Positions 12,066-35,412 of a stretch of 58,012 nucleotides of DNA are shown here, one piece after another (the first letter of the stretch is position 1; every line of letters begins with the position of its first letter). The stretch is from a virus (taxonomy: Duplodnaviria > Caudoviricetes). The stretch is taken from the IMG/VR virus record IMGVR_UViG_3300032213_001526, positions 1 to 58,012 of that record; one strand, given 5' to 3'. A program made the position numbers and the translations under genes. A model generated the notes under the pieces. That model was not told the origin of the DNA, did no database searches, and saw nothing but the letters and a program-made list of their open reading frames with translations.

Positions 12066-13955
12066 ATGCCAGCCCGCTATACCTCTCACAATCGTCGTCT
12101 GGAGCCACTCATGAGCCATCTGCTTGCCGTGCTGTTGACGTGCCGCAATGCCGAACGCGCCGCTACGTCCCTTTCCGAGGCAGCCATTCGCGAAGCGCTT
12201 GTATTGCTGAATCGCATAACGCTTCGCAATGACTTGTCCGAGGCGTCCCGTACTCGCCTTGGTGCGCGACTCGACGCTGCACGCAAGGCGAGTCGCTCCG
12301 CGTACTTTGAGGCGATCCACTTCCGCCATGTGACCGCAGAACGCCCGCCCAACGATCTGAGGCAGTTCTTCGATTCAGGTTACTACACGACCGACAACGA
12401 GATGGCTCGCGCGGTGCCCGAGTTAGTGCGGCGCAACCGTGATGCTGCGTATCTTCTGAGCGCGTCGATGGTGGCGTGTCGGTTCTGGCAGCTTGGCGTG
12501 TTGGTTGCACGGTACCACGTCCCCAACATTAGCTCGGCGTTTGCCACGTCCGCTGATGGCGTCCAGCTTCGTATTCCGCAGCTGGACCGCTCGCAGTTGG
12601 CCGCACTCCCCCATCCCGATGAGCGTGAGGCGGCGTTTCGCGCTCAGTTTCCTGAACCGACGTACGGTGCGCCGTTTATCATTCCCGATGCACTGTGGCG
12701 CTACAGCCAGTCGTCGCCGTCGCAGTGCGCGGCGTGTAGCGCGTCGTGCTTGCACGGCGGCACGGACCTTACCGCCCCGCCAGCGCAGGAATTTGCAGGT
12801 CGCATGTACTGTACATCGTGTGCGTCGGCAATGGCACGGTGCGACTTGTGCCATCTGCAATCTCCCAGTTTGGCTCGGACGCACATCATACCAGTCGGCA
12901 CTCCGGTGCCGTACCGTTCTTCGCAGCTTGTTTCTGGCCCGCGCGTTTGTCCAGTGTGCGTAGCCAACGCTGGCTTGACGACACACAACGGCTTTGTCGT
13001 CCCGCACCATGTCGCTGTGAACATGGTGTCGGCGACGATTCAGTCGTACAGCTTCCAGCCGACGTACCGCATTAACGTAGACGCCAATGAGCGGCTTGCC
13101 CCGTCTACGCTGTGCTTTGGCATTGAGCTAGAGTGTGGTCACACGTTTGGCACTGCGCGGCAGCAGACCATTTTGGACGGCCTCGCGTCTCCCGATATCT
13201 ACTTCAAGAACGACGGTAGCATCACTGGCTTTGAGATGATCTCCCACCCGTTTACATGGCGCTACTGGAACGCGACTGGACGCGACGTATGGCGTGAGCG
13301 GCTGCGCTTCATTCAGGCGGCTGGCGTTCGGTCGTACAATGCCCCCGGCTGTGGTATGCACGTTCATATGTCGCTGGCCGCGTTTACGGTCGCGCAAACC
13401 GCCCGCGTACTAGACTTAGTCTACGGCTGTCCTGATTTGTTCCAGAAGATTAGCCAGCGTGACATTTTTGATTACTGCCGGTTCAACAATCCCGACGTGA
13501 CAACAGCGACACTGCGGACGCGCCGTGCTGTGGCGGCGCACAACGACACCATGCAGAAGTACGCACGTCGCAGTGTTGGTGCCCAGCGACTTGTGGACAA
13601 GGCGCACAGCAATGGTGAGCGGCGCGTCGCTATCAACTTCCCCAACAACAAGCCGACGCTTGAAGTCCGGATGTTCCGTGGCACGTTGCACACGCCGTCG
13701 TTCGCCAAGAACATCGAAGTGTGCCACGCCCTCCATGCGTTCACGCTGGACAATAGCATCGACAGCATTTCCTCTGCACGCGAGTTTGTCACCTTTGCGT
13801 ACGACAACGAGCGTGTGTACCCGAACCTTGCCGCGTTCTTGGATCGCTGGCACAAGAATCTGCGCCCGCAGCGTCGCGTCGCACCGCCGCAGTACGCCGT
13901 CGTTCGCACCGCACCGTTGTTTGAGTTTGACCGCGCTATTGCCACCCAGTCCTGA
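12066..13955 (+). CDS. putative amidoligase (COOH-NH2 ligase, Amidoligase_2-like) with a Cys-rich Zn-binding region
   Basis: FGIELE, DGSI..FEMISHP, CGMHVHMS, R.VAINF, TLEVRMFRG; several CxxC pairs upstream; alternative start 12111. Confidence 0.85.
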   Translation: MPARYTSHNRRLEPLMSHLLAVLLTCRNAERAATSLSEAAIREALVLLNRITLRNDLSEASRTRLGARLDAARKASRSAYFEAIHFRHVTAERPPNDLRQFFDSGYYTTDNEMARAVPELVRRNRDAAYLLSASMVACRFWQLGVLVARYHVPNISSAFATSADGVQLRIPQLDRSQLAALPHPDEREAAFRAQFPEPTYGAPFIIPDALWRYSQSSPSQCAACSASCLHGGTDLTAPPAQEFAGRMYCTSCASAMARCDLCHLQSPSLARTHIIPVGTPVPYRSSQLVSGPRVCPVCVANAGLTTHNGFVVPHHVAVNMVSATIQSYSFQPTYRINVDANERLAPSTLCFGIELECGHTFGTARQQTILDGLASPDIYFKNDGSITGFEMISHPFTWRYWNATGRDVWRERLRFIQAAGVRSYNAPGCGMHVHMSLAAFTVAQTARVLDLVYGCPDLFQKISQRDIFDYCRFNNPDVTTATLRTRRAVAAHNDTMQKYARRSVGAQRLVDKAHSNGERRVAINFPNNKPTLEVRMFRGTLHTPSFAKNIEVCHALHAFTLDNSIDSISSAREFVTFAYDNERVYPNLAAFLDRWHKNLRPQRRVAPPQYAVVRTAPLFEFDRAIATQS

Positions 13956-13985: not shown

Positions 13986-15311
13986 ATGTGCGTACTCATC
14001 TATAAACCCGCTGGTGCATCCATCAGCGAAAACATTTTGCGCGGTTGCTTTGAGCGCAATGACGACGGACTCGGCATCGGCTACTCGGACGGCTCGACCC
14101 TGAGCATTTGGCGGACACTGAAAAACATCGACGAAGCCTGCAAGCGCGTGGAAATGCTGTACGACTATCCCGCGATGATCCACTTTCGCTATGCGACGCA
14201 CGGCGGCGTGTCGATGGACAACGTTCACCCGTTTTGGATCAACGACAACCGCCGCGCGTTGGTTGGCCATAATGGCGTCATCCATATTACGCATGCTCCC
14301 GGTGAGTCTGACACGCGGTCGTTCGTCAGCAACGTGCTTGGCAACATGAAGGACGGCTGGTGGAACAACCAGATTGCCAAGACGCAAATCGAGAAGCTGC
14401 TTGGCGGCTCCCGACTGGCGATCATGGAAGAGGATGGAAAGTGTACGTTTCTCAATAAGTATCAAGGTGAGACTACGGCTGATGGCGTGTGGTTCTCAAA
14501 CTCCCAGTTTAAGAACTTTCTTGCGCCATCTGCAAGATCGCTGCCCGCGCACAACATTATCGCGGCGACCGGACTGGAAGCGCCGCGTCAGGTCCACAGC
14601 AACAACTCGCAGTATTCGTGGCACGGAGAGCGCGACCCTTTTCAGTCGAAGTCGGTGGTCGCGCCGAAGCCGCCGACGATGACTGGCCAGACTCCTACAT
14701 CGGCGATGACGGTTTCACCGGCACTACCTCCGATGACCCCGGCGACGCCTTCTATGACGACACCATCGACGACGCCGAAGGCGCCCTCCTTAGTCTCCAG
14801 CGTTGGTGGAATGGTCTCAGCGACGGCGAGCGATTCCTCGCCGCTGACTACTTTGAGCGGACCGCTACACGACTCCGAGGTCAAAGCGTGGACTGACGCC
14901 CTCGGCATCGACTGGATCAACGACTACGCGGTCGGCTATGTGTCGATGCCCAATGGCGTGTATGGCCGCGAAGAGTACCACTGCGAAAAGCACGTTCCGG
15001 CAGACATTCGCACTGCAATAGACCCCACGGTCTCTGCAATCAATGCGATTGACTTGCTCGACGCGCATTTCGTCGAGGCCAAGTGTCACGAGTGCTACGA
15101 GCGACTGTGTACGAGAGCCCGCTTTGAGTACGCGGCGTTTATGGCCACCACGATGGAAGAAGAGGACGACTATCGTCCTCTGCCTAAATCCCGTTCACGC
15201 CGTCGCAAAGGACGGAAGGAGGCCACGCGCACGACGCGCAGCACGACCGAATCGGAGTCCGGATCGTTGGAGCTTGTCAGCACCAACGACACACCCTCCA
15301 GCAACCGTTAA
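13986..15311 (+). CDS. class II (Ntn) glutamine amidotransferase with a C-terminal extension
   Basis: N-terminal MC nucleophile, N.DG.G, HFRYATHG, NVHPF, HNG, SDT; then a Pro/Thr/Ser linker and a HCEKH...CHEC domain. Confidence 0.88.
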   Translation: MCVLIYKPAGASISENILRGCFERNDDGLGIGYSDGSTLSIWRTLKNIDEACKRVEMLYDYPAMIHFRYATHGGVSMDNVHPFWINDNRRALVGHNGVIHITHAPGESDTRSFVSNVLGNMKDGWWNNQIAKTQIEKLLGGSRLAIMEEDGKCTFLNKYQGETTADGVWFSNSQFKNFLAPSARSLPAHNIIAATGLEAPRQVHSNNSQYSWHGERDPFQSKSVVAPKPPTMTGQTPTSAMTVSPALPPMTPATPSMTTPSTTPKAPSLVSSVGGMVSATASDSSPLTTLSGPLHDSEVKAWTDALGIDWINDYAVGYVSMPNGVYGREEYHCEKHVPADIRTAIDPTVSAINAIDLLDAHFVEAKCHECYERLCTRARFEYAAFMATTMEEEDDYRPLPKSRSRRRKGRKEATRTTRSTTESESGSLELVSTNDTPSSNR

Positions 15312-15324
15312 CCTCATCCCCCGC

Positions 15325-15774
15325 ATGATCTACGCCGTTTCCATACGGCAACCGTTTGCCTCGTTAATCCTCGCCGGAGTGAAGCGATACGAAGCACGGT
15401 CATGGTACCCGAGTGGCAACGGTTGGCTTCTCTTGCACGCGAGCGGAAACTACGGCTTGACTGCCGAAGAACTCCGCGAATCCCCTCGAATTGCTAAAGC
15501 GTTCACGAAAGCCAACCTCCCTCACGACCGCAATGCGTGGTCGCGAAGCGCCATCCTTGGCGCGTTTGAAGTCACTGGCATCCTCAAACCACCGTTTACC
15601 GCCCGCCAGTTGACTGCCCTCGACAAAGAGTTGTCCGGTGATGATCCGGATGTGCTCTGGAAAATTGGCAAGCGTATGACGTTCCCAGCACCGATCCCTT
15701 GCCACGGTAAGCTCGGCCTGTTTTTCCCTCCCGCTTCTGTCTTATCAGAAGTCCGCAAGCATCTCGACTTTTAG
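15325..15774 (+). CDS. ASCH domain protein (ASC-1-like)
   Basis: SIRQPFASLI..G.K.YE.RSW, LLLHAS, AILG, PIPC.GKLGLF. Confidence 0.85.
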   Translation: MIYAVSIRQPFASLILAGVKRYEARSWYPSGNGWLLLHASGNYGLTAEELRESPRIAKAFTKANLPHDRNAWSRSAILGAFEVTGILKPPFTARQLTALDKELSGDDPDVLWKIGKRMTFPAPIPCHGKLGLFFPPASVLSEVRKHLDF

Positions 15775-18717: not shown

Positions 18718-19201
18718 GACCACGAATGACACCATGCTTGGGATGCTTATGGAACATCCAGACATGGAAGGGCTGCAAGCTGGCACGCGCATCACGTACC
18801 TTGCGTTAATGGCCATCGCACGAAAGCCGTATGTGGACAACGCCCCGTTTATCCACAGTTCGTTGGCGCGGCTCACGGCGCTGTCGGTCGCGCAGGTCAC
18901 GCTAGCGCTCGACAAGCTGCGCGAAGCGGGGTTGTTTATTCCATCGACGGCGGCGCGGTTTTCGGAGGCGTTTTACCTTCCGCGTGCGATGGACCTCGAC
19001 ACGTCGCTGAATCCGAGCAACCCGCACCATCGGCGTCACGTACAAAAACGGTTGGCGAAGCTCCGCAAAGGCGCACCGGACCTCTGCGACATGTTTGCCA
19101 GCAATTACCCCGAGTGGATGGCCGAGCCGTCCACCGCTCTCACCGAGGTTCAGCACGATGGATTGGAGTCCCCAGCAGGAGAAGGCACTACAGCAGATTG
19201 A
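18707..19201 (+). CDS. possible winged-HTH replication protein
   Basis: RITYLALM...SSLARLTALSVAQVTLALDKLREAGLF resembles the wHTH of replication initiators; RBS ggag. Confidence 0.5.
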   Translation: MPRRTTNDTMLGMLMEHPDMEGLQAGTRITYLALMAIARKPYVDNAPFIHSSLARLTALSVAQVTLALDKLREAGLFIPSTAARFSEAFYLPRAMDLDTSLNPSNPHHRRHVQKRLAKLRKGAPDLCDMFASNYPEWMAEPSTALTEVQHDGLESPAGEGTTAD

Positions 19202-20384
19202 TCGCTGGCTTGACGAAGAAAACGGCCAGCAGATGTTGCGGTTGTTCGGGTACGCTGGCACTGGCAAGACGACGCTGGCTCGCACCATCGCCGACACCAT
19301 CGACGGTCCGGTGCAGTTTGCCGCGTACACGGGCAAGGCGGCATCGGTGATGCGTGCGAAGGGGTGCGCCACGGCTCAGACGCTGCACTCGCTGGTGTAC
19401 ACGGTGGACAGCTTCATCGACGAAGAAGAGATCGCGTTACGTGCGGCTCTCGACCTTACCGAGGACCCCGTGCAGCGCGGCCAGATCGTGCGGAAGATTC
19501 GCGCTGTGGTCGCTAACGCCAACAAGCATCGGTGGATTGTGAACCGTGACGGCCCACTGTCAAGCGCCGCGTTGCTGATTCTTGACGAGTGTTCGATGGT
19601 GGACGAGAAGTTGGGCCGCGACATTCTCTCGTTCAACAAGCCGGTGTTAGTGCTTGGTGACCCCGGCCAGTTGCCGCCGCCGTCCGGTGCTGGCTTCTTC
19701 ACGACAACCGCGCCAGACGCGCTTTTGACCGAGGTACATCGGCAGGCCAAGGAGAACCCGATTATTCGGTTGGCGACGCTCGCACGCGAAGGCAAGCCGA
19801 TCCGGCGCGGCCATGTGGCCCACGAGACTGGATCGGCCACGGTCACGGCGGACCGTGAGGCGTTCGCGCATTTTGATGGTCAGTATTTGACAGGGTCAAA
19901 CGTGATCCGCCGTACGCTCAACTGGAACGAGCGGTGCCAGATGCTTGGCACGACTACGCCACCCAAGGCTCCACAGCAAGGCGAGCCGATCATTGTCCTG
20001 CGAAACAACAAAGACCTTGGCATTTTTAACGGCGTCATCGGGTCGATGGCGTCTACCGCCGTGTGGACTGATAACGAGGACTTGCGCGGCGATGTAATGT
20101 ACGAGGGCCGCTTAATGTCCGATCTGTTCATCGACGGCGCGGTGTTCCGGCAGTACGACGACCTGCGTGCCCCGCAGCCGCCGCTCCAGTATGACCGCGA
20201 CAAGACGCCGCTCGACTTCGGCTACGCGCTGACGGTTCACAAGGCGCAAGGCTCGGAATGGGACAGCGTCTGCCTCGTAGACGATGGTTTCGGTAAACGT
20301 GATCCGGCGCTTCGTGCCCAATGGCTGTACACCGCCATCACACGCGCCTCCAAAGACTTGATGATCTACACGGGAGACCTATGA
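19158..20384 (+). CDS. SF1B DNA helicase (Dda/RecD-like)
   Basis: GYAGTGKTT, DECSMV, GDPGQLPP, HRQA, YALTVHKAQGSEW, LYTAITRA. Confidence 0.92.
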   Translation: MDWSPQQEKALQQIDRWLDEENGQQMLRLFGYAGTGKTTLARTIADTIDGPVQFAAYTGKAASVMRAKGCATAQTLHSLVYTVDSFIDEEEIALRAALDLTEDPVQRGQIVRKIRAVVANANKHRWIVNRDGPLSSAALLILDECSMVDEKLGRDILSFNKPVLVLGDPGQLPPPSGAGFFTTTAPDALLTEVHRQAKENPIIRLATLAREGKPIRRGHVAHETGSATVTADREAFAHFDGQYLTGSNVIRRTLNWNERCQMLGTTTPPKAPQQGEPIIVLRNNKDLGIFNGVIGSMASTAVWTDNEDLRGDVMYEGRLMSDLFIDGAVFRQYDDLRAPQPPLQYDRDKTPLDFGYALTVHKAQGSEWDSVCLVDDGFGKRDPALRAQWLYTAITRASKDLMIYTGDL

Positions 20385-21026: not shown

Positions 21027-21559
21027 TCACGGCCTCCAAGACGACATGGTTGACCGCGTACTTGGAGGCATGGGCCACTGGCGCTGGCACGGCAACTGCT
21101 GCCCTGCCAGCCGCTCGTGCGGCCAAGACCTTTAAGGCGCTAGAAGCGACCTTCGGTCGCTCCGATGTGCTGGCGCGATGGCAGTCGGCGTGGGTGTCTA
21201 CGCCTGATCATCAGCGGAAATTCCTGACACCGGAATCGTTTGCGCGGCGGTATGGTGAGTTTAAGCCACCCGCGTTTGACGCCTTCGGCTTCGTGTCGTA
21301 TTCGGCAGAGCAAGACGATCTTGCGTCTGAGATTGTTGAGGCGATGAGCGGGATGCGTGCTGCGTTGTACTTGCGGTTCGATCTGCCGCCGACTTTCCCT
21401 CTTTCCGCCGCCTTGCTTCGTGCGTACGAATCGCTGCGCGGGTACCATGAACGCGGCTTACAGGAGTACAACGACGTGATTGCTGCTCATCGTTCTATTG
21501 ATCCGGTTTGCGCTGGACATACCGCTACCCTTTCCTTTCACCTGTCTGGCACATCATGA
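21023..21559 (+). CDS. hypothetical replication-module protein
   Basis: ATGA overlaps; directly upstream of the DnaB-like helicase; FLTPESFARRY. Confidence 0.6.
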   Translation: MITASKTTWLTAYLEAWATGAGTATAALPAARAAKTFKALEATFGRSDVLARWQSAWVSTPDHQRKFLTPESFARRYGEFKPPAFDAFGFVSYSAEQDDLASEIVEAMSGMRAALYLRFDLPPTFPLSAALLRAYESLRGYHERGLQEYNDVIAAHRSIDPVCAGHTATLSFHLSGTS

Positions 21560-22608
21560 GCGAAGCCCTCTCGTTTCAAGAACGCCACACCGCGAAAGCT
21601 GAACTCCGGTCGTACGAGGACACCGCCACGTCGGCTGCCGACGCAATGGTGGGGATGGAGCTTGGCGAAGAGGATTTTATCCACTTTCCGTGGCCGTCAC
21701 TGGACCGTGCCGTTGGTGGTGTCGGCCCGAATCGCATTGTGATTCTGGCGGCGCCTCCGGAAGGCGGCAAAAGCTCGTTTATGTTGTCGCTGCTGGACGG
21801 ATGGGCCGAAGATGGCGTCCGCGTGTGCGCTGGCTTTCTGGAGACGCCGACTGATGTGCTGATGCAGCAGTGGGCGTGCCTACGCCTTGGCATTAACTAC
21901 GAGATCATTGGCACGGGTGCGTATCTCACTATGCGGAATGCACGCGAGATACGCGAGTCAGTCAAGAATGAGATCAGCCACATGGCGATCAAGTTTAGCC
22001 GCACGATTTGGCCACACCCGATGACGACTTTGAGCGCAGCAACTTTGGACGCGTTTTACAACGATGCGTTTCAATTTGATGCGGACGTAGCCATCATTGA
22101 CCACTTGGATCACACCGAGGACACGGGCAATGGTGCGTCTGGCATCACCTTGAGCAACACGATTATCAGTACGGTCCATCGCCGGATGCGGCAAGCGAAG
22201 GCGCGGGGCAGCAAAATGCGGACGTTTGCCACGTCGCAGATGAACAACGACGCTACACGGCGCGGAGGGGTCTTTGGTCGCGCTACGCCGCCGATTCCGT
22301 CCGACGTGTTTATGGGGCAGCGCAAGGAGCAGTTAGCCGACCTCTTTCTTGGCTTGCACCGGATTCGGCGTCCCGCAATGGAAGGCGACGTGCAGTTGGA
22401 GAAGGACGTGAAGGAAGGCCGACGCCCACTTGCGGATATGCTCTTGCCGAATACGGTCGGCGTGCGGATTATGAAGCGGCGTGTCGGCGGCGGATCAAAC
22501 ATTACTATCCCGCTTGGCTTCCGTGCTGGCCGCGTGGTCGAACCGAACTACACCATGTCGATGGTCCGTGCCGCCGATACGGCACCCGCTGAGGTTTTTG
22601 AGTCGTGA
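21556..22608 (+). CDS. DnaB-like (SF4) replicative helicase
   Basis: PWPSLD...GG, ILAAPPEGGKS Walker A, LE, IIDHL, SQMN, EQLAD. Confidence 0.85.
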   Translation: MSEALSFQERHTAKAELRSYEDTATSAADAMVGMELGEEDFIHFPWPSLDRAVGGVGPNRIVILAAPPEGGKSSFMLSLLDGWAEDGVRVCAGFLETPTDVLMQQWACLRLGINYEIIGTGAYLTMRNAREIRESVKNEISHMAIKFSRTIWPHPMTTLSAATLDAFYNDAFQFDADVAIIDHLDHTEDTGNGASGITLSNTIISTVHRRMRQAKARGSKMRTFATSQMNNDATRRGGVFGRATPPIPSDVFMGQRKEQLADLFLGLHRIRRPAMEGDVQLEKDVKEGRRPLADMLLPNTVGVRIMKRRVGGGSNITIPLGFRAGRVVEPNYTMSMVRAADTAPAEVFES

Positions 22609-23495
22609 AGCAATACGCCATGCCGTTTTCTCGTGGAGGCCCGAGCGCAGCGGCTCGCAGTGCTGGAGGCAAGCGCGGGAAAGCCAATGGCCAGCAGTTT
22701 GAGAAAGAGCTTGAACAAGCCAACGATGTGTACCGCCGCCGCCAGTTGGCCCACATTGAGCGTGTCCATCCGGAGGCTGTTGGTCCTCCGGGGAAGATGC
22801 GGCTGGCAAAAGCCGGTCCAGTCGATTTTTTTGGCGTGGTCGCTGGTGGCCGCGCCATCTGCTTTGATGCCAAGGCCCGAGAAAACGCCGCTTCGTTCGC
22901 GTACGATGAGCGGGACCAGCACCAGATTCACGCGCTGGTGAGTGCGCGTGACTGCGGGGCGCTGGCGTTTTTGCTGATTTGCGACAATTCGCGGTCGTTA
23001 GCTTATGTCGTCGGCGGCGACGCATTGGACGCCTTAGCACGCGGTGAACGTGTCGCCCTTCGCACTGACACACGCGGCTCGCGCCAAGCGACGCCGCTTT
23101 TCTATACGGTCCCTGCGCGTGCGCCGTACGTCGCTGGCCGTCCTGCGGCATGGGATTATCTTGCCGTAGTCCTTAACCCAGAGTCGCTATGTCGCAAGAC
23201 TACTCCAGTCTCGGCAGTCGGGCCAACTCCGCTGGCCGTGCGTTTGAGAAAGCCATCGTCGAAGTCTGCGACCACTACCGCGAAGAAGCGGTCGCCGATA
23301 TCCGCCGCTGCTACCCCGCTAGTCGATCCGCACCGCATTCCGTCCGGCTCGCGGGTCTTTCGGAGGTCGATTTTGACGGCGACCTCATCGGCGGAAAGTA
23401 CGGAAACAAACAGATCGCGTTCGACGCGAAGTCGATCAGCAAGAACTCTACGTACAGCCACTCTACCCGCGACCGGCACCAAATCGCGTACTTGA
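22605..23495 (+). CDS. RecU-like Holliday junction resolvase, copy 1 (3' ~100 codons run over copy 2 out of frame)
   Basis: GQQFE..LE.AN..Y, VDF.G, FDAK, HQI.AL, GALAFLLI. Confidence 0.8.
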   Translation: MKQYAMPFSRGGPSAAARSAGGKRGKANGQQFEKELEQANDVYRRRQLAHIERVHPEAVGPPGKMRLAKAGPVDFFGVVAGGRAICFDAKARENAASFAYDERDQHQIHALVSARDCGALAFLLICDNSRSLAYVVGGDALDALARGERVALRTDTRGSRQATPLFYTVPARAPYVAGRPAAWDYLAVVLNPESLCRKTTPVSAVGPTPLAVRLRKPSSKSATTTAKKRSPISAAATPLVDPHRIPSGSRVFRRSILTATSSAESTETNRSRSTRSRSARTLRTATLPATGTKSRT

Positions 23496-23743
23496 TGCGG
23501 TTACAAGCCAAGGGGCATATTGGCTTTATCTTGCTGTACGATCACCGACTCGACATGATGTGGCTGTTCATGGACGTGCGTCGTATTCTCCAGCCGCCAG
23601 AGTGGGTAGACGTGCGGACCGTGCGCGATGGCCGCGTCGAGTCGTTTCTGCCGCAAGTCGTGCGAAAGGGTGGCTTGTGGGACTTTTTGCCGGTCGCGTT
23701 TGCCGAGTATGACCGCCTCTTTGGTAGTGCGTCTAAGGAGTAG
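23189..23743 (+). CDS. RecU-like Holliday junction resolvase, copy 2
   Basis: GRAFE..I...C..Y, VDF.G, FDAK, HQIAYL, GHIGFILL. Confidence 0.8.
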   Translation: MSQDYSSLGSRANSAGRAFEKAIVEVCDHYREEAVADIRRCYPASRSAPHSVRLAGLSEVDFDGDLIGGKYGNKQIAFDAKSISKNSTYSHSTRDRHQIAYLMRLQAKGHIGFILLYDHRLDMMWLFMDVRRILQPPEWVDVRTVRDGRVESFLPQVVRKGGLWDFLPVAFAEYDRLFGSASKE

Positions 23744-23814
23744 CCGATCAGTCATGGTGCCGACTACCACTCCGGTCTGTGGGCATTTGCTGAGGCGTCA
23801 CAGGAGAATACATT

Positions 23815-24033
23815 ATGCCCCCGCGTCGCGTTTCTGCGAAGAAGAAGGCTTCGGCTCCGAAGAAGATTGAGCGCACCACGACCAAGATTGCTCGCAAGCT
23901 TAAGCGGTCGGGTCAGGCTGTTGGCCGTAACGAAACGCAGAAGGAAAAGATGGCTGCTCGTCGTCAGCTTTCTGCGCTGTCTGGCGTGAAGATGACCCCG
24001 CGTGAGCGCTCGGGCCGTTCTTCGCAGGGTTGA
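23815..24033 (+). CDS. small highly basic protein ending in Gly
   Basis: strong RBS aggag; 72 aa Lys/Arg-rich; ends RSSQG. Confidence 0.75.
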   Translation: MPPRRVSAKKKASAPKKIERTTTKIARKLKRSGQAVGRNETQKEKMAARRQLSALSGVKMTPRERSGRSSQG

Positions 24034-24037
24034 TCTG

Positions 24038-24832
24038 ATGGAGAGGACCCCCACACACTCTCCAGACCGGATTGTCATGAACTTGCCGTCAGCCAACCCG
24101 CTGGCGGCAAGTCATTTCCAGCCTATCCATTGGCTGTCCAAGACGACTAAAGAAGTCGTTCTTGGGCTATCTGGCGGCAAAGATTCCGTCGCGTGCCTCG
24201 ACCTGTGTCATCGGTACGGCATCAAGGTGTACCCGTACTTTCTCTACATTGTGCGCGGCATGGCCGTGTGGGAAGAGTACGTGGAAGAGCTAGCTAAGGC
24301 CTACGATCTTGGCCCCGTGCTGTACTTGCCGACGCCAGACCGCATCCTGTACTACAAGATTGGCGAATACTGTGCGCCAACCCCGTCGCTCCAGCTGATC
24401 AACTTCCGTGATATTTGGGAACGCGCACGCGCCCACTACGGCATTAAGTGGCTCGTAACCGGCGAGAAAAAGCTGGACTCACTGGAGCGTCGCGCACAGA
24501 TTTCTTCATGGGGGTCGGTGCAGCCAGCACGGTACCGCGCCTTTCCGCTGGCGGACTGGTCGCACCAGCAAGTCAAAGAGTACTTGTCGGAGCGTGGTGT
24601 GCCACTGAACCCGCAGTATCGTATCTTTGGCCGTTCGCTCCGCTCGCCGTTTGAAGCCGACACGATTCTCACCCTCCGAGATCACTTTCCTGATGACTAC
24701 GCCAAGCTCTGCCGAGACTTCCCCTTCGCCAACGCCGCCGCCGTCCGCGCCGAAAGCCGAGGGCACAAAGCGCTTCCGGTTTCTGGAGATACCGCGCAGC
24801 CAAATCCAGAAAGCGGACTACAACCCGCGTGA
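24038..24832 (+). CDS. PAPS-reductase-like PP-loop (adenine nucleotide alpha-hydrolase) protein
   Basis: LSGGKDS, TGEKKLDSLERR, FPLADWS...V..YL; alternative start 24077. Confidence 0.85.
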   Translation: MERTPTHSPDRIVMNLPSANPLAASHFQPIHWLSKTTKEVVLGLSGGKDSVACLDLCHRYGIKVYPYFLYIVRGMAVWEEYVEELAKAYDLGPVLYLPTPDRILYYKIGEYCAPTPSLQLINFRDIWERARAHYGIKWLVTGEKKLDSLERRAQISSWGSVQPARYRAFPLADWSHQQVKEYLSERGVPLNPQYRIFGRSLRSPFEADTILTLRDHFPDDYAKLCRDFPFANAAAVRAESRGHKALPVSGDTAQPNPESGLQPA

Positions 24833-25529
24833 CATTGATCCGTACGTCCTGAACAAGCTGGCCGAAGGCATCGAAGAGTTCGGGTTGGTTGAGACGCTGG
24901 TCTGGAACGAAGCTACGGGCATCTTGGTCGGTGGACATCAGCGGTTGTCGATTCTCGACCGGCAGCACGCGGAAGGCGAAGACTATCTCGTCCCTGTGTC
25001 GGCGGTAAATCTCTCGCCAGAAAAAGAACGCCAGCTGAACGTGTTTCTGAACAATGAGACCACGCAAGGCGGGTGGGACACCGCCAAGCTGGAGATGCTG
25101 TTTCGCGATGGCAACACGTCGCCCTTCGCAGCTGGCTTTGACGCTTCGGACCTCCAGCAGTTGTTCCCCACGGAAACGGTTGTCGACTTCATCAAGAAGT
25201 ATCTGCCAGATACCACGTTTGACAGTCCAGAGCAGATGGCAGAAATCCCCGGTACGCCGCCGCCTGACGCGGTGCAGCAGGCTGCGCTTGATATCATGGA
25301 AATCAAGGCGGCACGCAACAAGCATCGGGACGGCAACCGCGAAGACCTGCGAGCCGATCACATTGTCGTGATGGTGTTCGACACGTCGGCGCAAGCCAAA
25401 GGTTTCTTGACGACCGTTGGGCTGGACAGCAATATGCCGTACTTCCTTGCCGAGCATTTGCTGACAGCAATGGGCTGCGAGCGACTTGTGCCAACAAAGG
25501 TGCTTGACGTAAGCGATCAGACGGCGTAG
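24693..25529 (+). CDS. ParB/Srx-like nuclease-domain protein
   Basis: YNPR, I.EFGLVE.LVWN, LVGGHQRL, ERQLNVFLNN...G.WD. Confidence 0.88.
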   Translation: MTTPSSAETSPSPTPPPSAPKAEGTKRFRFLEIPRSQIQKADYNPRDIDPYVLNKLAEGIEEFGLVETLVWNEATGILVGGHQRLSILDRQHAEGEDYLVPVSAVNLSPEKERQLNVFLNNETTQGGWDTAKLEMLFRDGNTSPFAAGFDASDLQQLFPTETVVDFIKKYLPDTTFDSPEQMAEIPGTPPPDAVQQAALDIMEIKAARNKHRDGNREDLRADHIVVMVFDTSAQAKGFLTTVGLDSNMPYFLAEHLLTAMGCERLVPTKVLDVSDQTA

Positions 25530-27353: not shown

Positions 27354-27728
27354 GTGCCGCCGTCAAACCGACGCTCCAACAATATCCGCGCTGTTCACCT
27401 GAAAGCGCTGCGCCGTGCGGCGGGGTGGTCGCAAGTGCAGCTTGGTGAACTCACTGGCTTAAATCCGGTGATGCTTTCGCAGATCGAAACGATGCGTCGT
27501 GCCATCCCAATGCACATGGCCGTCACGATTGCCGATGCGCTCGGCGTCAGCATTGACCTACTGGTTGATCGCAAGTCGCCAGAGGGTCCATGCTCCGGCT
27601 TTGAAGTGGAGGATTTGCGCCCACAGCCGTCTGGCCTCGCGCTCCTCAAGCTTCGCCGCTCGCGTCGCCCACTGACAGACGCCGAAACGATGGCGCTCGC
27701 TGCCGAACTGGAGGCCGCGCATGGCTGA
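27354..27728 (+). CDS. XRE/Cro-C1-type HTH regulator
   Basis: LKALRRAAGWSQVQLGELTGL....LSQIE......IADALGVSIDLL. Confidence 0.88.
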   Translation: MPPSNRRSNNIRAVHLKALRRAAGWSQVQLGELTGLNPVMLSQIETMRRAIPMHMAVTIADALGVSIDLLVDRKSPEGPCSGFEVEDLRPQPSGLALLKLRRSRRPLTDAETMALAAELEAAHG

Positions 27729-29710: not shown

Positions 29711-30271
29711 GTGCAAGACGCGCTTGACCTGCCGAACCTAAGTGGCCAGCCAGCACGGCCATCGGCCACGGTTCCAGCGATAGACCCGTTGAAGGCGCGT
29801 ATCCTGTTTTCGCTGCTACGTGCTGGTGCCCCACGGATGCCAGCAGTGCGTGCGGCACGGATCGACTACACCACGTTCAAGCGTGCGATGGTGCGTGGTG
29901 AAAAGCAGCGCGAAGGGGAGTTCCGCACGTTCTACGATGAGGTGCTGTACAACGAAGCCATGTCTGAGAACGAACTCGTTCTCGTGCTTCGGGCTGATGC
30001 TGTCGAAAACAAGAACGTCTCGACGGCCAAGTACCTACTGGAGCGTCGTCGTCGCTCGCGATGGGCGGTCGAGCGGTACGGCACTGGCAATGGCTTTGCC
30101 CCAGTCGCCGATGTGGCCGCACAAGATGCGGGTGTTCAGCTGGAAACCGAAGAGCGGTTAGCACGCATTGAAGCACTCAAGGCACTGGCCTTACAAAGAC
30201 AGACCCGCCGCCTCAAGGACGCGGAGCCGCTCGAAATTGCCGTCGTAGAACCCTTAGACGAGGACGTGTAG
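29711..30271 (+). CDS. probable terminase small subunit
   Basis: N-terminal HTH-like AVRAARIDYTTF, F..FY..V..EA, AKYLLERR...RW; upstream of the terminase large subunit. Confidence 0.65.
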   Translation: MQDALDLPNLSGQPARPSATVPAIDPLKARILFSLLRAGAPRMPAVRAARIDYTTFKRAMVRGEKQREGEFRTFYDEVLYNEAMSENELVLVLRADAVENKNVSTAKYLLERRRRSRWAVERYGTGNGFAPVADVAAQDAGVQLETEERLARIEALKALALQRQTRRLKDAEPLEIAVVEPLDEDV

Positions 30272-31111: not shown

Positions 31112-31305
31112 GTGACGTGAAAGAACTATGCGACAAATGTGGCGACTACCGCTGCATTTGTCTGAGCATCCTCACACCCGAGATGGCTGCGGTGATTGAG
31201 GCGGCAAAGGCGTGGGCCTTCTCGGATGGTTCGGAGTTCGGGTTGGACGAATGCGAGAAGCTTCTTTCCGCAGTCAACGCACTACGTTTGCGAGAAACCG
31301 CATGA
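31108..31305 (+). CDS. small Cys-rich protein
   Basis: CDKCGDYRCIC; AVIEAAKAW. Confidence 0.6.
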   Translation: MSDVKELCDKCGDYRCICLSILTPEMAAVIEAAKAWAFSDGSEFGLDECEKLLSAVNALRLRETA

Positions 31306-32945
31306 GCCACACACTCCCGCGCACCGTACGACGCAAGGCCGACCGCACGCGCAAAAAGGTGGAGCAGCGCGTCCTCGGTGACGGGGTGACGTTTGAAGGC
31401 AGCGAGTATTCGTGGATTCAGTTCTTGACGCCCAAAGAGCGAAAGGAACTGGACCTACTGCTGCTCGACGTAAAGCCGGTTCTGAGCTTTCGGCAGTTTA
31501 TTGCACTGGTCAAGCCCGAGTTTGAGTTTCACTGGTACCTCGACGTACTGATCCGCGTACTGCAAGACGTGGCAGACGGGTCGCGGACGCGAGTGATGAT
31601 CTTCATGCCGCCACGCCACGGCAAGTCGGAACTGGTCTCACGCCTTTTCCCTGCGTACTACCTGTATCGGCATCCGAAGCGGAACGTCGGCCTCGTGTCC
31701 TATGGTGCCGACCTTGCGTATGAGTTAGCGGGTGCGGCACGCGACTTGTTTTTCCGCCATGACGATGGCCAGTCTACTGCGTCCCGTGCTACAAAGAACT
31801 GGCGCACGACCAGCGGTGGCGGACTGTGGGCAGACGGTATTGGCGGCACGCTGACTGGTAAAGGCGCCAACCTGCTGATCTTGGATGACCCGACCAAGAA
31901 CGCGCAGGAGGCCGCGTCCGTGACAACACAGCGCCGGAACATTGACTGGTACTCGTCAACCTTTTCGTCCCGTAAGCAGCGGCGACAGGCTGATGGCTCT
32001 GCCTCGGCTGTCGTGGTCGTTGGCACCCGTTGGCACGAAAACGATATTCTCGGGTGGCTGCTGGCCACAGAGCGCACCTCGTCCGAGAAAACGGCGGAGC
32101 GCTGGCACGTTCTCTGCTTCCAAGCGATCAAAGATAGCGCAGACATGGAGGAGTGGCCCTCATGGTGTACGGACGAGGACGACTCTGATCCGCGTGATGA
32201 CGGCGACGCACTCAACCCTGCGTGGTTCACGATTGACGACTTGCTCAAAGAGCAGAGCAAGGGGCGGCATTACTTTGCGGCACTGTACCAACAGCGGCCT
32301 CGCCCACGCGAAGGTACGATGTTCCAGTGGCAGTGGTTTCACGTCCTCAAGGAGCCATACCTCGGCCCCGGCTTGCTGGTCATGCACTTCGACTTGGCTG
32401 GCACAGACGGTAACGTCAGCGCGGGTGCCGATTACACGGCTGGCTGTGCAATGGTTCGCACACCGGAAGGGCGCTTTATTATCCACAAGGTAGCGCGTGG
32501 CCAGTATTCACCCGCACGGCGCGATCACTTTATTAAGCAGGAAGCGTACGCGGTCGCCAACGAGTTCGGGGGTCTTCATCGGCTCCGGCTTGGCTTGGAG
32601 CAAGAGGCTGGCATTGGTGGTGCCGAGCGCATTGCGGCAGCGACCCGCGTGCTGTCCGCGTTCAGCCTTTACGTTGAGCCAGCGACCAAGTCCAAGTTCC
32701 TGCGTGCCGAACCCTTGGCCGCACAGGCAGAGCTAGGCAACGTGTGGATCGTCGAAGGGGAGTGGAACGGTGAGTTCCTTGACGAACTGTGTTCTTTCGG
32801 GCCGGACGGCGGCGGACGCAACGACGACATGGTCGATGCCGCCTCTGGTGCGATGAACAAGCTGGCAGAACTGGCTGACAACGACGTACCCCTTGTCCTG
32901 CCGGTCCTTGGCGAGATGTACAGTCCCTTCAACGACGGCGAATAA
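31302..32945 (+). CDS. terL: terminase large subunit
   Basis: MPPRHGKS Walker A, LILDDP Walker B, GTRWHENDI, YQQRP, FDLA and DDMVDA nuclease motifs. Confidence 0.95.
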   Translation: MSHTLPRTVRRKADRTRKKVEQRVLGDGVTFEGSEYSWIQFLTPKERKELDLLLLDVKPVLSFRQFIALVKPEFEFHWYLDVLIRVLQDVADGSRTRVMIFMPPRHGKSELVSRLFPAYYLYRHPKRNVGLVSYGADLAYELAGAARDLFFRHDDGQSTASRATKNWRTTSGGGLWADGIGGTLTGKGANLLILDDPTKNAQEAASVTTQRRNIDWYSSTFSSRKQRRQADGSASAVVVVGTRWHENDILGWLLATERTSSEKTAERWHVLCFQAIKDSADMEEWPSWCTDEDDSDPRDDGDALNPAWFTIDDLLKEQSKGRHYFAALYQQRPRPREGTMFQWQWFHVLKEPYLGPGLLVMHFDLAGTDGNVSAGADYTAGCAMVRTPEGRFIIHKVARGQYSPARRDHFIKQEAYAVANEFGGLHRLRLGLEQEAGIGGAERIAAATRVLSAFSLYVEPATKSKFLRAEPLAAQAELGNVWIVEGEWNGEFLDELCSFGPDGGGRNDDMVDAASGAMNKLAELADNDVPLVLPVLGEMYSPFNDGE

Positions 32946-34390: not shown

Positions 34391-35412
34391 CAGAGGTCAA
34401 CAAGCGACGCGCAACCGCAGACGAATGGGATATAGTGATGGCGCTGGTGGACTCACTGTCTCCAGCGCTTGTTGCTGAAATTTTGTCGACGGTCAGCGAG
34501 ATCAACGGCACGGACTGGGTAGCTACGGTCGCCGACCTGATTGAGAACGGCGACTACAACGGGGTTGCCAACCTCCTGCTCTCGCCAGAAGCACTGGATC
34601 GCTACCGCGCCCCGTTTGGACTGGCGGTGCGCGGCGTCATGGAGGACCTTGGCGTAGCGATCATCACGCCACTGCGGCCAATTCAGCCGCCCATTGGTCC
34701 GCCAGTGGAGTTCCGCTTCGATGTGCTAGACCAGCGTGTGGTACAACAAGTCCAAAATCATTCCACGTCGCTGCTCAGTGACTTTTCCCGTAACACACGC
34801 GCAGGCGTCCGGCAGCATATCATCGACGGCGTGCGGCGTGGCGTTCACCCGCGCGAGATCGCTTCAGCGCTCCGCAAGGACAAGGTCATTGGCCTCTCTG
34901 CACGCGGGGCGCAGGCGGTTGCCAACTATCGCGCCAACCTGCTCGGCACGGATCGCAAGGCGGTTATGGCGGCAGCCCTCCAGCGAGAACTGCGAGACCG
35001 TCGATACGACACGGTGATCCAGCGTGCCATGCGGAATAACACCGGCTTACCCGAAGCCAAGGTAGACGAGATGGTCCGGCGCTATGCGGAACGGATGTTG
35101 AAGCACGAGACCGAGACCATTGCCCGAACGGAAGTCTTGCAGGCGTATGAAGCCGTGAAGCAGCAAATCTGGAACGACACGATCACGCGAGGCTACCTCG
35201 ACCCGAAGGCATACGTCAAGAAGTGGTACCTCGCGAAGGACGAGCGGACCTGCACGATCTGCAAGACCATTGTGGCGTTGAACCCCAATGGCGTGCCAGT
35301 CAACGGGTTCTTCAAGACGCCGAACGGATTGCCAGCGCTGGCCGGACCACTGGCGCACCCCAACTGCCGGTGCATCACGCTCATTACTGCTAAGCAAAAG
35401 GTCCTGTCATGA
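34387..35412 (+). CDS. MuF/SPP1 gp7-like minor head protein
   Basis: ETIARTE, KKW....DERTC.IC, PLAHPNCRC. Confidence 0.9.
   Translation: MTEVNKRRATADEWDIVMALVDSLSPALVAEILSTVSEINGTDWVATVADLIENGDYNGVANLLLSPEALDRYRAPFGLAVRGVMEDLGVAIITPLRPIQPPIGPPVEFRFDVLDQRVVQQVQNHSTSLLSDFSRNTRAGVRQHIIDGVRRGVHPREIASALRKDKVIGLSARGAQAVANYRANLLGTDRKAVMAAALQRELRDRRYDTVIQRAMRNNTGLPEAKVDEMVRRYAERMLKHETETIARTEVLQAYEAVKQQIWNDTITRGYLDPKAYVKKWYLAKDERTCTICKTIVALNPNGVPVNGFFKTPNGLPALAGPLAHPNCRCITLITAKQKVLS

Follow-up and report, generated by a model that had tools for sequence, protein, structure and literature searches.

A recurrent tailed-phage module of a basic glycine-ended peptide, a PP-loop enzyme and an overlapping ParB-like protein

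The window analysed here is a linear virus record from IMG/VR (IMGVR_UViG_3300032213_001526; 58,012 bases; estimated completeness 77%) and carries three adjacent genes. They encode a basic, Gly-ended peptide that is predicted to be disordered, a PP-loop enzyme and a ParB/Srx-type protein whose gene overlaps that of the enzyme. Together they are a conserved phage module, in which the peptide ends in Gly or Gly-Gly and a gene for an ASCH-domain protein often lies nearby. The module probably tags or modifies DNA rather than serving sulfur metabolism. For the chemistry, we tentatively favour a scheme in which the enzyme would adenylate the C-terminal glycine of the peptide and the activated peptide would then be joined to an amine of DNA or of a protein bound to DNA. 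The elements of the module in the window are the following (ORF, open reading frame; PAPS, phosphoadenosine phosphosulfate).

23802-23806, + strand: AGGAG, Shine-Dalgarno-like, 8 nt before the ATG of the peptide, read directly
23815-24033, + strand: basic peptide of 72 residues ending in ...RSSQG, an ORF also called by the source gene caller (P0020)
24038-24832, + strand: PP-loop ATP-pyrophosphatase-type enzyme of the PAPS-reductase superfamily (PF01507), 264 residues from ATG 24038
24170-24187, + strand: PP-loop motif SGGKDS, residues 45-50 of the enzyme, invariant in alignments A1 and A3
24693-25529, + strand: ParB/Srx-fold protein of 278 residues with YNPR and GGHQR motifs and a C-terminal domain of unknown function (PHROG, Foldseek)
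24693-24832, + strand: dual-frame region of 140 nt, coding for the C-terminal tail of the enzyme and, in the +1 frame, for the N-terminus of the ParB-like protein (from the sequence)

The initial annotation had described a Lys/Arg-rich, Gly-ended upstream ORF of 72 residues with a ribosome-binding site, a PAPS-reductase-like PP-loop enzyme that has SGGKDS and lacks an ECGLH tail, and a ParB-like gene overlapping the enzyme gene by about 140 nt. All of these features were recovered. The peptide contains 31% Lys plus Arg and has an isoelectric point of 12.0. It had no family in Pfam, PHROG, NCBIfam or PADLOC, and a search of 5.8 billion proteins returned only the peptide itself. Its Atlas model, with a predicted local distance difference test (pLDDT) of 0.53 and a predicted template-modelling score of 0.22, predicts a disordered chain.

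The evidence for a module comes from its recurrence. A first set of 32 distant loci (23-36% identity) was obtained by an IMG/VR scan, and a second set of 80 further loci was fetched later with query A5, from other family members. These 112 loci and the window formed 44 enzyme clusters at 60% identity, scored by majority vote per cluster; the ORF calls behind the comparisons were mechanical. A peptide was counted by a fixed rule: the ORF had to run for 20 codons or more after the previous stop and to terminate 40-170 nt ahead of the PP-loop motif, its last 30 residues had to carry a net charge of +2 or higher, and its final residue had to be Gly. In 19 of the 32 first-set loci the enzyme gene was immediately followed, often with an overlap, by a ParB-like gene, and a ParB-like hidden Markov model matched in 76 of the 80 loci of the second set. 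Of the 30 ParB-partnered clusters, 19 had a peptide ending in Gly, and 13 one ending in Gly-Gly. The 14 unpartnered clusters gave 3 and 2, respectively, and two of the three Gly positives were the same truncated enzyme gene.

The upstream peptides of the first set ended mostly in Gly-Gly (...NGGQGG, ...GLSGG, ...GMAGG, ...GLQGG, ...SASGG, ...PSGGG, ...SGGGGG, ...GGTGGG and ...GRAGG). The pattern reappeared in the second set, which came from a different query and brought new lineages with the ends ...RRKSNGGNGG, ...RRKSIGGKGG, ...RASRGGGGG, ...ASGLSGG, ...KSGGGGGGGG, ...AGTSGAG and ...SAGNSAG. Among long ORFs in the same contigs, 31 of 423 ended in Gly and 3 of 423 in Gly-Gly. A junction control, made of ORFs that stop at the start of a long ORF, gave 48 of 483 and 13 of 483, and 11 of these 13 Gly-Gly ends belonged to the peptides discussed here. 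Background rates were accordingly 7-10% for Gly and 0.7-2.7% for Gly-Gly, and the enrichment reached a binomial p of about 1e-12 over clusters that are not fully independent phylogenetically. The arrangement of the trio thus recurs in other phages far more often than chance would allow. The check suggested in the initial annotation, whether homologous loci always carry a basic Gly-ended peptide, came out positive for 19 partnered clusters and not for the other 11, so that "always" has to be given up.

Apart from charge and tail, the peptides have diverged. Of 120 pairs among 16 upstream ORFs, only four exceeded shuffled sequences, namely L008, L009 and L018 mutually (conserved as protein, z 18-22 versus shuffles) and L017 with L029. 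A tail motif RRKSxGGxGG links several other peptides by eye. Since the peptides are otherwise unrelated, selection apparently acts on the charge and the Gly tail. A Shine-Dalgarno-like motif preceded the start codon in 14 of 25 peptides, most of the others being in low-GC contigs; several peptide stops overlap or abut the enzyme start (for example TAATG or TGATG), and some peptides carry GRGG-type motifs. None of ten upstream peptides had a PHROG family, and their Atlas scores did not exceed 0.81. A beta-grasp fold was not found: the peptides are 36-90 residues long and of low complexity, the Atlas model was poor and pLDDT stayed below 50 in the complex run. Co-folding of the enzyme alignment with ATP and the peptide gave scores of 0.00, 0.35 and 0.01, which weigh neither way on binding.

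Two other explanations were considered and rejected. Shine-Dalgarno sequences read as Gly codons do not agree with the junction control, nor with the Gly codons themselves, which are mostly GGC or GGT. That peptide and enzyme are fused by read-through or by frameshifting is not compatible with the frame relation between stop and start, which differs among loci.

The enzyme belongs to the PAPS-reductase superfamily and has the PP-loop fold. PF01507 (PAPS_reduct) matched residues 52-206 with 44.2 bits against a cut-off of 22.5 (E 2.9e-11), a search of the virus record itself gave 44.6 bits, and the PHROG matches were phrog_424 and phrog_2302. The frame is open from GTG 24002 and the gene caller starts at ATG 24077 (P0001, 251 residues); the likely start is ATG 24038, 4 nt past the stop of the peptide. 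The AlphaFold model (pLDDT 88.5) had as best structural matches the PAPS domain of FAD synthase (Z 14.9), reductases of adenosine phosphosulfate (APS) and PAPS (Z 12-14), CysD (12.1) and TilS (12.0); the Cap9 chain 9nto_B was also among the matches (Z 10.0). The Foldseek list was led by TtuA, TilS and NcsA, with TtuA 5b4f first and the TtuA-TtuB complex 5gha in the top ten.

The enzyme is nevertheless outside every curated enzyme family, all NCBIfam equivalogs, including CysD, leaving it under their cut-offs. The CysH and APS-reductase equivalogs NF002537, TIGR02057, TIGR02055 and TIGR00434 gave 26.4, 22.9, 21.3 and 15.4 bits against cut-offs of 154, 254.2, 235.3 and 165.1, and the DndC model TIGR03183 gave 11.7 bits against 290.4. 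CysH-type enzymes carry a catalytic Cys in a C-terminal ECGLH-type tail. No such Cys was found at the C-terminus of the window enzyme, which reads ...PESGLQPA, and no Cys is conserved family-wide in alignments A1 and A3.

The family is large. At E<=1e-3 a profile search of 1.84 billion representatives returned 5,354 proteins, of which 942 reached E<=1e-30; the members are mostly stand-alone proteins of 215-290 residues, and their Atlas clusters are 69-87% viral. Fusions to HNH or HTH_17 domains are rare: P0144 combines an N-terminal HNH with PAPS_reduct, both above the Pfam cut-offs, and P0160 an N-terminal HTH_17 with the enzyme. P0089 carries a C-terminal extension of about 150 residues with no Pfam match. 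L099-type loci (for example L099:2169-2459) show a PP-loop variant, FSTGKDS, together with a short ParB-like partner and a ribbon-helix-helix-like upstream ORF. Two proteins, P0002 and P0003, are 80% identical to the enzyme. Close relatives with genomic context were found neither by the single-protein scan of viral_contigs nor by the A2 scans of genome_contigs and viral_contigs, and the A2 scan of metagenome_contigs returned two short fragments only.

The protein encoded downstream has the NTP-binding N-terminal fold of the ParB/Srx superfamily, with a GxxR-type motif. It matched phrog_9353 (1.5e-40), phrog_620, named 'ParB-like' (1.5e-23), phrog_498, a methyltransferase N-terminus (1.4e-21), and the N-terminal region of PADLOC MTase_II (5e-20). 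No Pfam family, ParBc included, matched at E<=0.01. Foldseek with the model (pLDDT 77.6) returned the CTP- or CDP-bound ParB structures 7bnr, 7bm8 and 6sdk (E 3e-6 to 8e-6, 7bnr on top at 3e-6), and also Noc, PadC, KorB and sulfiredoxin. Alignment A4 shows next to no variation in YNPR and GGHQR. A search with the ParB-like protein alone found no close relatives with context.

The overlap of the two genes is at least 140 nt, since there is no ATG, GTG or TTG from ATG 24693 to the start of the conserved domain. The metagenomic relative L033 keeps the same Met, the same overlap and both frames, at 79% identity for the enzyme and 58% for the ParB-like protein. YNPR is encoded at 24819-24830, over the enzyme tail in the other frame. 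The C-terminus of the enzyme, (L/V)QP(A/T) (24819-24832; ..LQPA in the window), recurs in the distant relatives L014, L016 and L007. This apparent conservation arises because the same bases encode the YNPR of ParB in the +1 frame, the overlap thereby mimicking a conserved tail. A programmed -1 frameshift joining the two proteins was rejected, the ParB frame being +1. Among the 150 best members of the family, 15 of which were read, none had a length that suggested an enzyme-ParB fusion.

An ASCH-domain protein is a tentative fourth component.

15043-15774, + strand: ASCH-domain ORF (phrog_3193, 8.5e-17; Pfam ASCH, 23.6 bits against a cut-off of 21.2)

In the window this ORF lies 8 kb upstream of the module; in many relatives it adjoins it. 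ASCH homologues (PF04266, phrog_3193, phrog_625) occurred in the fetched flanks of 16 of the 30 partnered clusters versus 2 of the 14 unpartnered ones.

The enzyme family also occurs in cultured phages, in 34 of 50,697 records. Bacteroides phage BS-TP2 (L159, 1355-3432) has the full set, with ASCH gp52, a peptide gp53 of 53 residues, the 'PAPS reductase' gp54 and the ParB-like gp55, followed by DUF5681 and the large terminase. Here the peptide is an annotated coding sequence, ending in ...GSNG, and gp52-gp55 offer a ready cultured model. In Lactobacillus phage JNU_P7 (L162, 1491-2663) the ASCH gene (30.3 bits) and the PAPS-like gene are immediate neighbours that have no peptide gene between them; the ParB-like genes come three genes further on, apparently split into two ORFs.

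Outside phages, YbdN and YbdM of E. coli resemble the enzyme and its partner. They belong to the same two superfamilies with the enzyme first, and ybdN and ybdM overlap by 28 nt. YbdN differs, however, in having 406 residues and a DUF3440 domain that the window enzyme of 264 residues lacks. The alignment of the two enzymes is limited to the PP-loop region (30% over 64 residues, E=0.001), and YbdM aligns to the partner solely around the NP motif. There is no small upstream peptide, as no ORF of at least 20 residues lies between citR and ybdN. The available part of PMC9068703 describes ybdNM as chromosomal and under CitR. The function of YbdN/YbdM and of IbrA/IbrB is unknown or regulatory; the likeness to IbrA/IbrB is one of superfamily and gene order.

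Several observations point to DNA as the target of the module: the HNH and HTH_17 fusions, the methyltransferase-type N-terminal domain of the partner and its fold match to CTP-bound ParB. Sulfate assimilation had been discounted in the initial annotation, and we agree, given that the CysH, APS-reductase, CysD and DndC models stayed far under their cut-offs and that the gene lies in the replication and packaging region of a phage. The same annotation had also considered a conjugation system, which found no support in this tailed-phage context.

As to the reaction, adenylation is the way in which PP-loop enzymes activate carbonyl or carboxylate groups. E1 enzymes do so with ubiquitin-like tails, and a Gly-Gly terminus, in ubiquitin-like proteins as in sulfur carriers, marks tails that reach an adenylating active site. 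The PAPS-reductase fold in CysH works with its own flexible C-terminal tail. The QueC-family PP-loop enzymes Cap9 and QatC are described, in the parts of the sources available, as joining glycine-bearing flexible protein tails to nucleobases as amides (10.1101/2025.04.06.647259; PMC13279940). Carboxylate activation by PP-loop enzymes, the logic of Gly-Gly tails, the tail of CysH and the QueC-family precedents together made us favour adenylation of the C-terminal Gly, as a possible rather than a probable scheme. The enzyme would spend ATP on adenylating the carboxylate of the flexible C-terminal glycine, and an amine, belonging either to DNA or to a protein bound there, would then accept the activated peptide. 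The ParB-like protein might serve as a DNA loader or as an NTP switch, and the ASCH protein might be an amidohydrolase that removes or trims the adduct, a role suggested by YqfB-type ASCH proteins, reported in excerpts to hydrolyse N4-acylcytosines (PMC6972931; PMC12707154). The position of the module, which suggests action just before packaging, would fit a marking or protection of the phage's own DNA.

In its most specific form the scheme would be a ubiquitin- or Pup-like tagging of DNA. Once activated by the enzyme, the peptide Gly would form an amide with an exocyclic amine of a base in the phage genome, N4 of cytosine being the most plausible. A ParB-type NTPase clamp would control this step, which would fall shortly ahead of packaging, and ASCH would be the eraser or trimmer. 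We consider this version improbable as a whole. If true, it would be the first modification of DNA by a ribosomal peptide and the mirror image of deazaguanylation by Cap9.

Known systems share parts of this scheme. In the case of DndC and DndB, and also of SspD and BrxP, a PAPS-reductase-family PP-loop enzyme and a ParB-superfamily protein are reported to act on DNA (PMC10853773, PMC12707154, as far as the consulted sections go). DndC differs by a 4Fe-4S cluster and a Cys dyad, according to the same part of PMC10853773, whereas the family described here has no conserved Cys. DndC moreover needs DndA/IscS, DndD and DndE; none of these was seen among the roughly 30 window ORFs scanned, and a Gly-ended peptide stands in their place. 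TtuA-TtuB and Ncs6-Urm1 likewise consist of a PP-loop enzyme that works with the C-terminal tail of a partner. TtuB, which ends in GG, and Urm1 both adopt a beta-grasp fold and depend on a distinct E1-like enzyme for their activation; TtuA carries an Fe-S cluster. The window peptide, by contrast, is predicted to be disordered and is basic, and the enzyme lacks Cys ligands.

Cap9 (type IV CBASS) and QatC (QatABCD) share with the trio a PP-loop enzyme, a flexible glycine-bearing partner tail, a possible nucleobase amide and a setting of phage-host conflict. As far as the available text describes them, they use the N-terminal amine of the partner, adenylate a carboxylate of the base, are host defence genes and belong to the QueC family. 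In the present module the C-terminal carboxylate would be activated instead, the enzyme is of the PAPS-reductase-like family and the genes are viral. Pup is similar to the peptide as a short disordered tag that relies on a Gly-Gly-containing C-terminus, and the ends GGH of L004/5 and GN of L084 recall tags with extra residues. Pup is acidic, however, has GGQ or GGE at its end and is joined through a side chain by the glutamine-synthetase-like PafA; there is no detectable homology between Pup and the peptide. Finally, the N-terminus of the partner resembles, over about 130-150 residues, the ParB-N domain of phage DNA methyltransferases (phrog_498, PADLOC MTase_II). This match to a methyltransferase-fused domain suggests a shared DNA-handling role in a DNA-modifying enzyme, with the difference that the catalytic partner in the window is a separate PP-loop protein.

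A number of observations weigh against adenylation of the peptide. The window peptide itself ends in a single Gly (QG), not in GG. Under the fixed rule no Gly-ended peptide was found in 11 of the 30 partnered clusters; the largest Gly-negative group, the L099 type with 40 contigs, has the ribbon-helix-helix-like gene upstream instead. Basic upstream ORFs without a Gly end occur in L011, L012 and L150, those of L004/5 and L084 end in GGH and GN as mentioned, and nothing comparable was present upstream in L006, L007, L097, L098, L132 and L156. Among cultured phages, Riemerella phage RAP44 has a basic ORF of 44 residues ending in NGAI, and no such peptide was found in Lactobacillus phages LR1 and JNU_P7, Pasteurella phage Pm86 or Gordonia phage Aleemily. 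A basic N-terminal extension is present on the enzyme itself in 13 of the best 150 family members and, if these are real fusions, the peptide would have no free C-terminus there. The automatic test for a link of ASCH with the peptide within partnered clusters was not significant (12/7/4/7, p=0.26), for which reason we treat this link as a lead; p=0.007 was reached only after post hoc re-scoring of borderline cases by eye.

The most serious alternative, which we consider only a little less likely, is that the enzyme and ParB-like pair acts on DNA, or regulates late genes as is reported for E. coli IbrAB, with no chemical use of the peptide. The peptide would then be a separate nucleic-acid binder, such as one that neutralises charge or binds in an RGG-like manner, and its Gly-rich end would be no more than a flexible tail. 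The pair indeed exists without the peptide in E. coli ybdNM, in the 11 partnered viral clusters and in a number of cultured phages. Strong basicity is common to the peptides, some of which have GRGG-type motifs, and the place of the module, right ahead of terminase genes, is one where late regulators are often found. A generic DNA binder, however, has no evident need for a Gly-Gly end conserved amid full sequence divergence, and the peptide is tied to one enzyme subfamily, as the partnered and unpartnered clusters show (19/30 vs 3/14).

It is unlikely that the peptide is a sulfur carrier. In that case the enzyme would adenylate the peptide Gly, a host persulfide would convert it to a thiocarboxylate, and the sulfur would be placed on the DNA backbone or on a base, in a chemistry resembling TtuB/TtuA, Urm1/Ncs6 and ThiS and combined with a DndC/DndB-like pairing. 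GG tails are a hallmark of sulfur carriers, and TtuA and NcsA were among the top fold matches. DndC, SspD and BrxP of the PAPS-reductase superfamily are reported to put sulfur into DNA (PMC12707154, PMC12839542, both available in part), and DndB is placed in the ParB superfamily in the section of PMC10853773 that we used. The absence of a conserved Cys in A3 nevertheless leaves the enzyme family with no persulfide or Fe-S site, and the score with the DndC model was far too low. No gene of the desulfurase, E1-like, DndD-like or DndE-like type appeared among the roughly 30 scanned ORFs, although host genes might supply these functions. High basicity and disorder would not be needed for a carrier either.

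That the ORF of 72 residues and its counterparts are not genes at all, and instead chance ORFs or by-products of ribosome-binding sites in GC-rich or Gly-codon-rich spacers, is very unlikely. It would explain the lack of a family and of homologues in sequence searches, and in some loci the last Gly codons do fall at the Shine-Dalgarno position of the enzyme, as in L001 with GGGAGG 9 nt before the ATG. On the other hand, just two other GG ends occurred among the 483 junction ORFs. The Gly codons, apart from being mostly GGC or GGT, lie 15-18 nt from the enzyme start in L013, L017 and L029. The L008, L009 and L018 peptides are conserved as protein, 14 of 25 have a Shine-Dalgarno-like site of their own, and two independent gene callers annotated such peptides (P0020 and BS-TP2 gp53).

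A true CysH-type PAPS/APS reductase, an auxiliary gene for host sulfate assimilation as counted in many virome papers (in the parts available to us), is barely conceivable: PF01507, the PHROG name 'phosphoadenosine phosphosulfate reductase' and the structural matches to APS/PAPS reductases recommend it, against equivalog scores of 15-26 bits with cut-offs of 154-254, the missing ECGLH Cys, the obligate linkage to a ParB-like gene, the fusions to HNH or HTH domains and an intact SGGKDS, which marks ATP pyrophosphatases rather than PAPS reductases. What weight is left after adenylation of the peptide and these four alternatives goes to mechanisms not yet thought of.

Phage members of this family routinely receive the name "PAPS reductase" or cysH and are counted as auxiliary metabolic genes of sulfur. 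For the ParB-partnered family this reading is almost certainly wrong and, with 942 representative clusters at E<=1e-30, the family concerned is not a small one. The pair of enzyme and ParB-like protein is already known from ybdNM, ibrAB and, more distantly, DndC/DndB. The peptide partner appears to be unreported: we found no description of a Gly-ended peptide with a PAPS-like/ParB-like pair in the literature, supplementary gene-neighbourhood tables not being covered. A mechanism for the pairing (IbrAB, YbdNM, DndBC) has been missing for about two decades, and the peptide, co-translated with the enzyme and constant only in its charge and Gly-Gly end, offers a concrete candidate substrate. C-terminal activation by a PP-loop enzyme, if true, would be a new peptide-tagging route outside the E1 and PafA families, and perhaps a kind of DNA or DNA-protein modification not described before in conflicts between phage and host.

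PHROG and Pfam scans, which covered about 30 ORFs, a part of all ORFs in the window, identified the surroundings of the trio as a tailed-phage genome. The module is located between replication genes and terminase genes:

19095-20384: Dda-like helicase
21508-22608: DnaB-like helicase
22605-23495 and 23189-23743, + strand: tandem pair of RecU-like resolvase ORFs (PF03838, 1.9e-12 and 1.2e-8)
27354-27728: helix-turn-helix regulator
29711-30271: small terminase
31212-32945: large terminase

Portal, head-morphogenesis and major head genes are also present in the window. A large terminase was inside the fetched flanks of 10 of 17 first-set loci; in nine of the ten it lay 1-9 genes downstream of the ParB-like gene and in L006 upstream of the enzyme. 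In RAP44, LR1, Pm86 and BS-TP2 a terminase gene follows 1-3 genes downstream. Contigs from two DNA runs of the same study had few low-depth single-base differences and patchy cover, and were uninformative on selection of the peptide.

Three further observations concern other genes of the window. The open frames of the RecU-like pair overlap by about 300 nt; the pair may be a duplication, the C-terminal half of the first ORF perhaps being noncoding. An ORF of 872 residues (35409-38027, + strand), 3' of the head-morphogenesis gene, has a weak match to an Alt-like ADP-ribosyltransferase (phrog_802, 9.7e-5, residues 71-190) and may be an ejected or internal virion protein. An ORF of 629 residues (12066-13955, + strand) contains an Amidoligase_2 domain (PF12224, 7.5e-13, residues 386-556) and matches phrog_2443, 'amidoligase enzyme'. 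Amidoligase_2 is a glutamine-synthetase-like family of carboxylate-amine ligases, and this ORF may be of relevance to ligation of the peptide.

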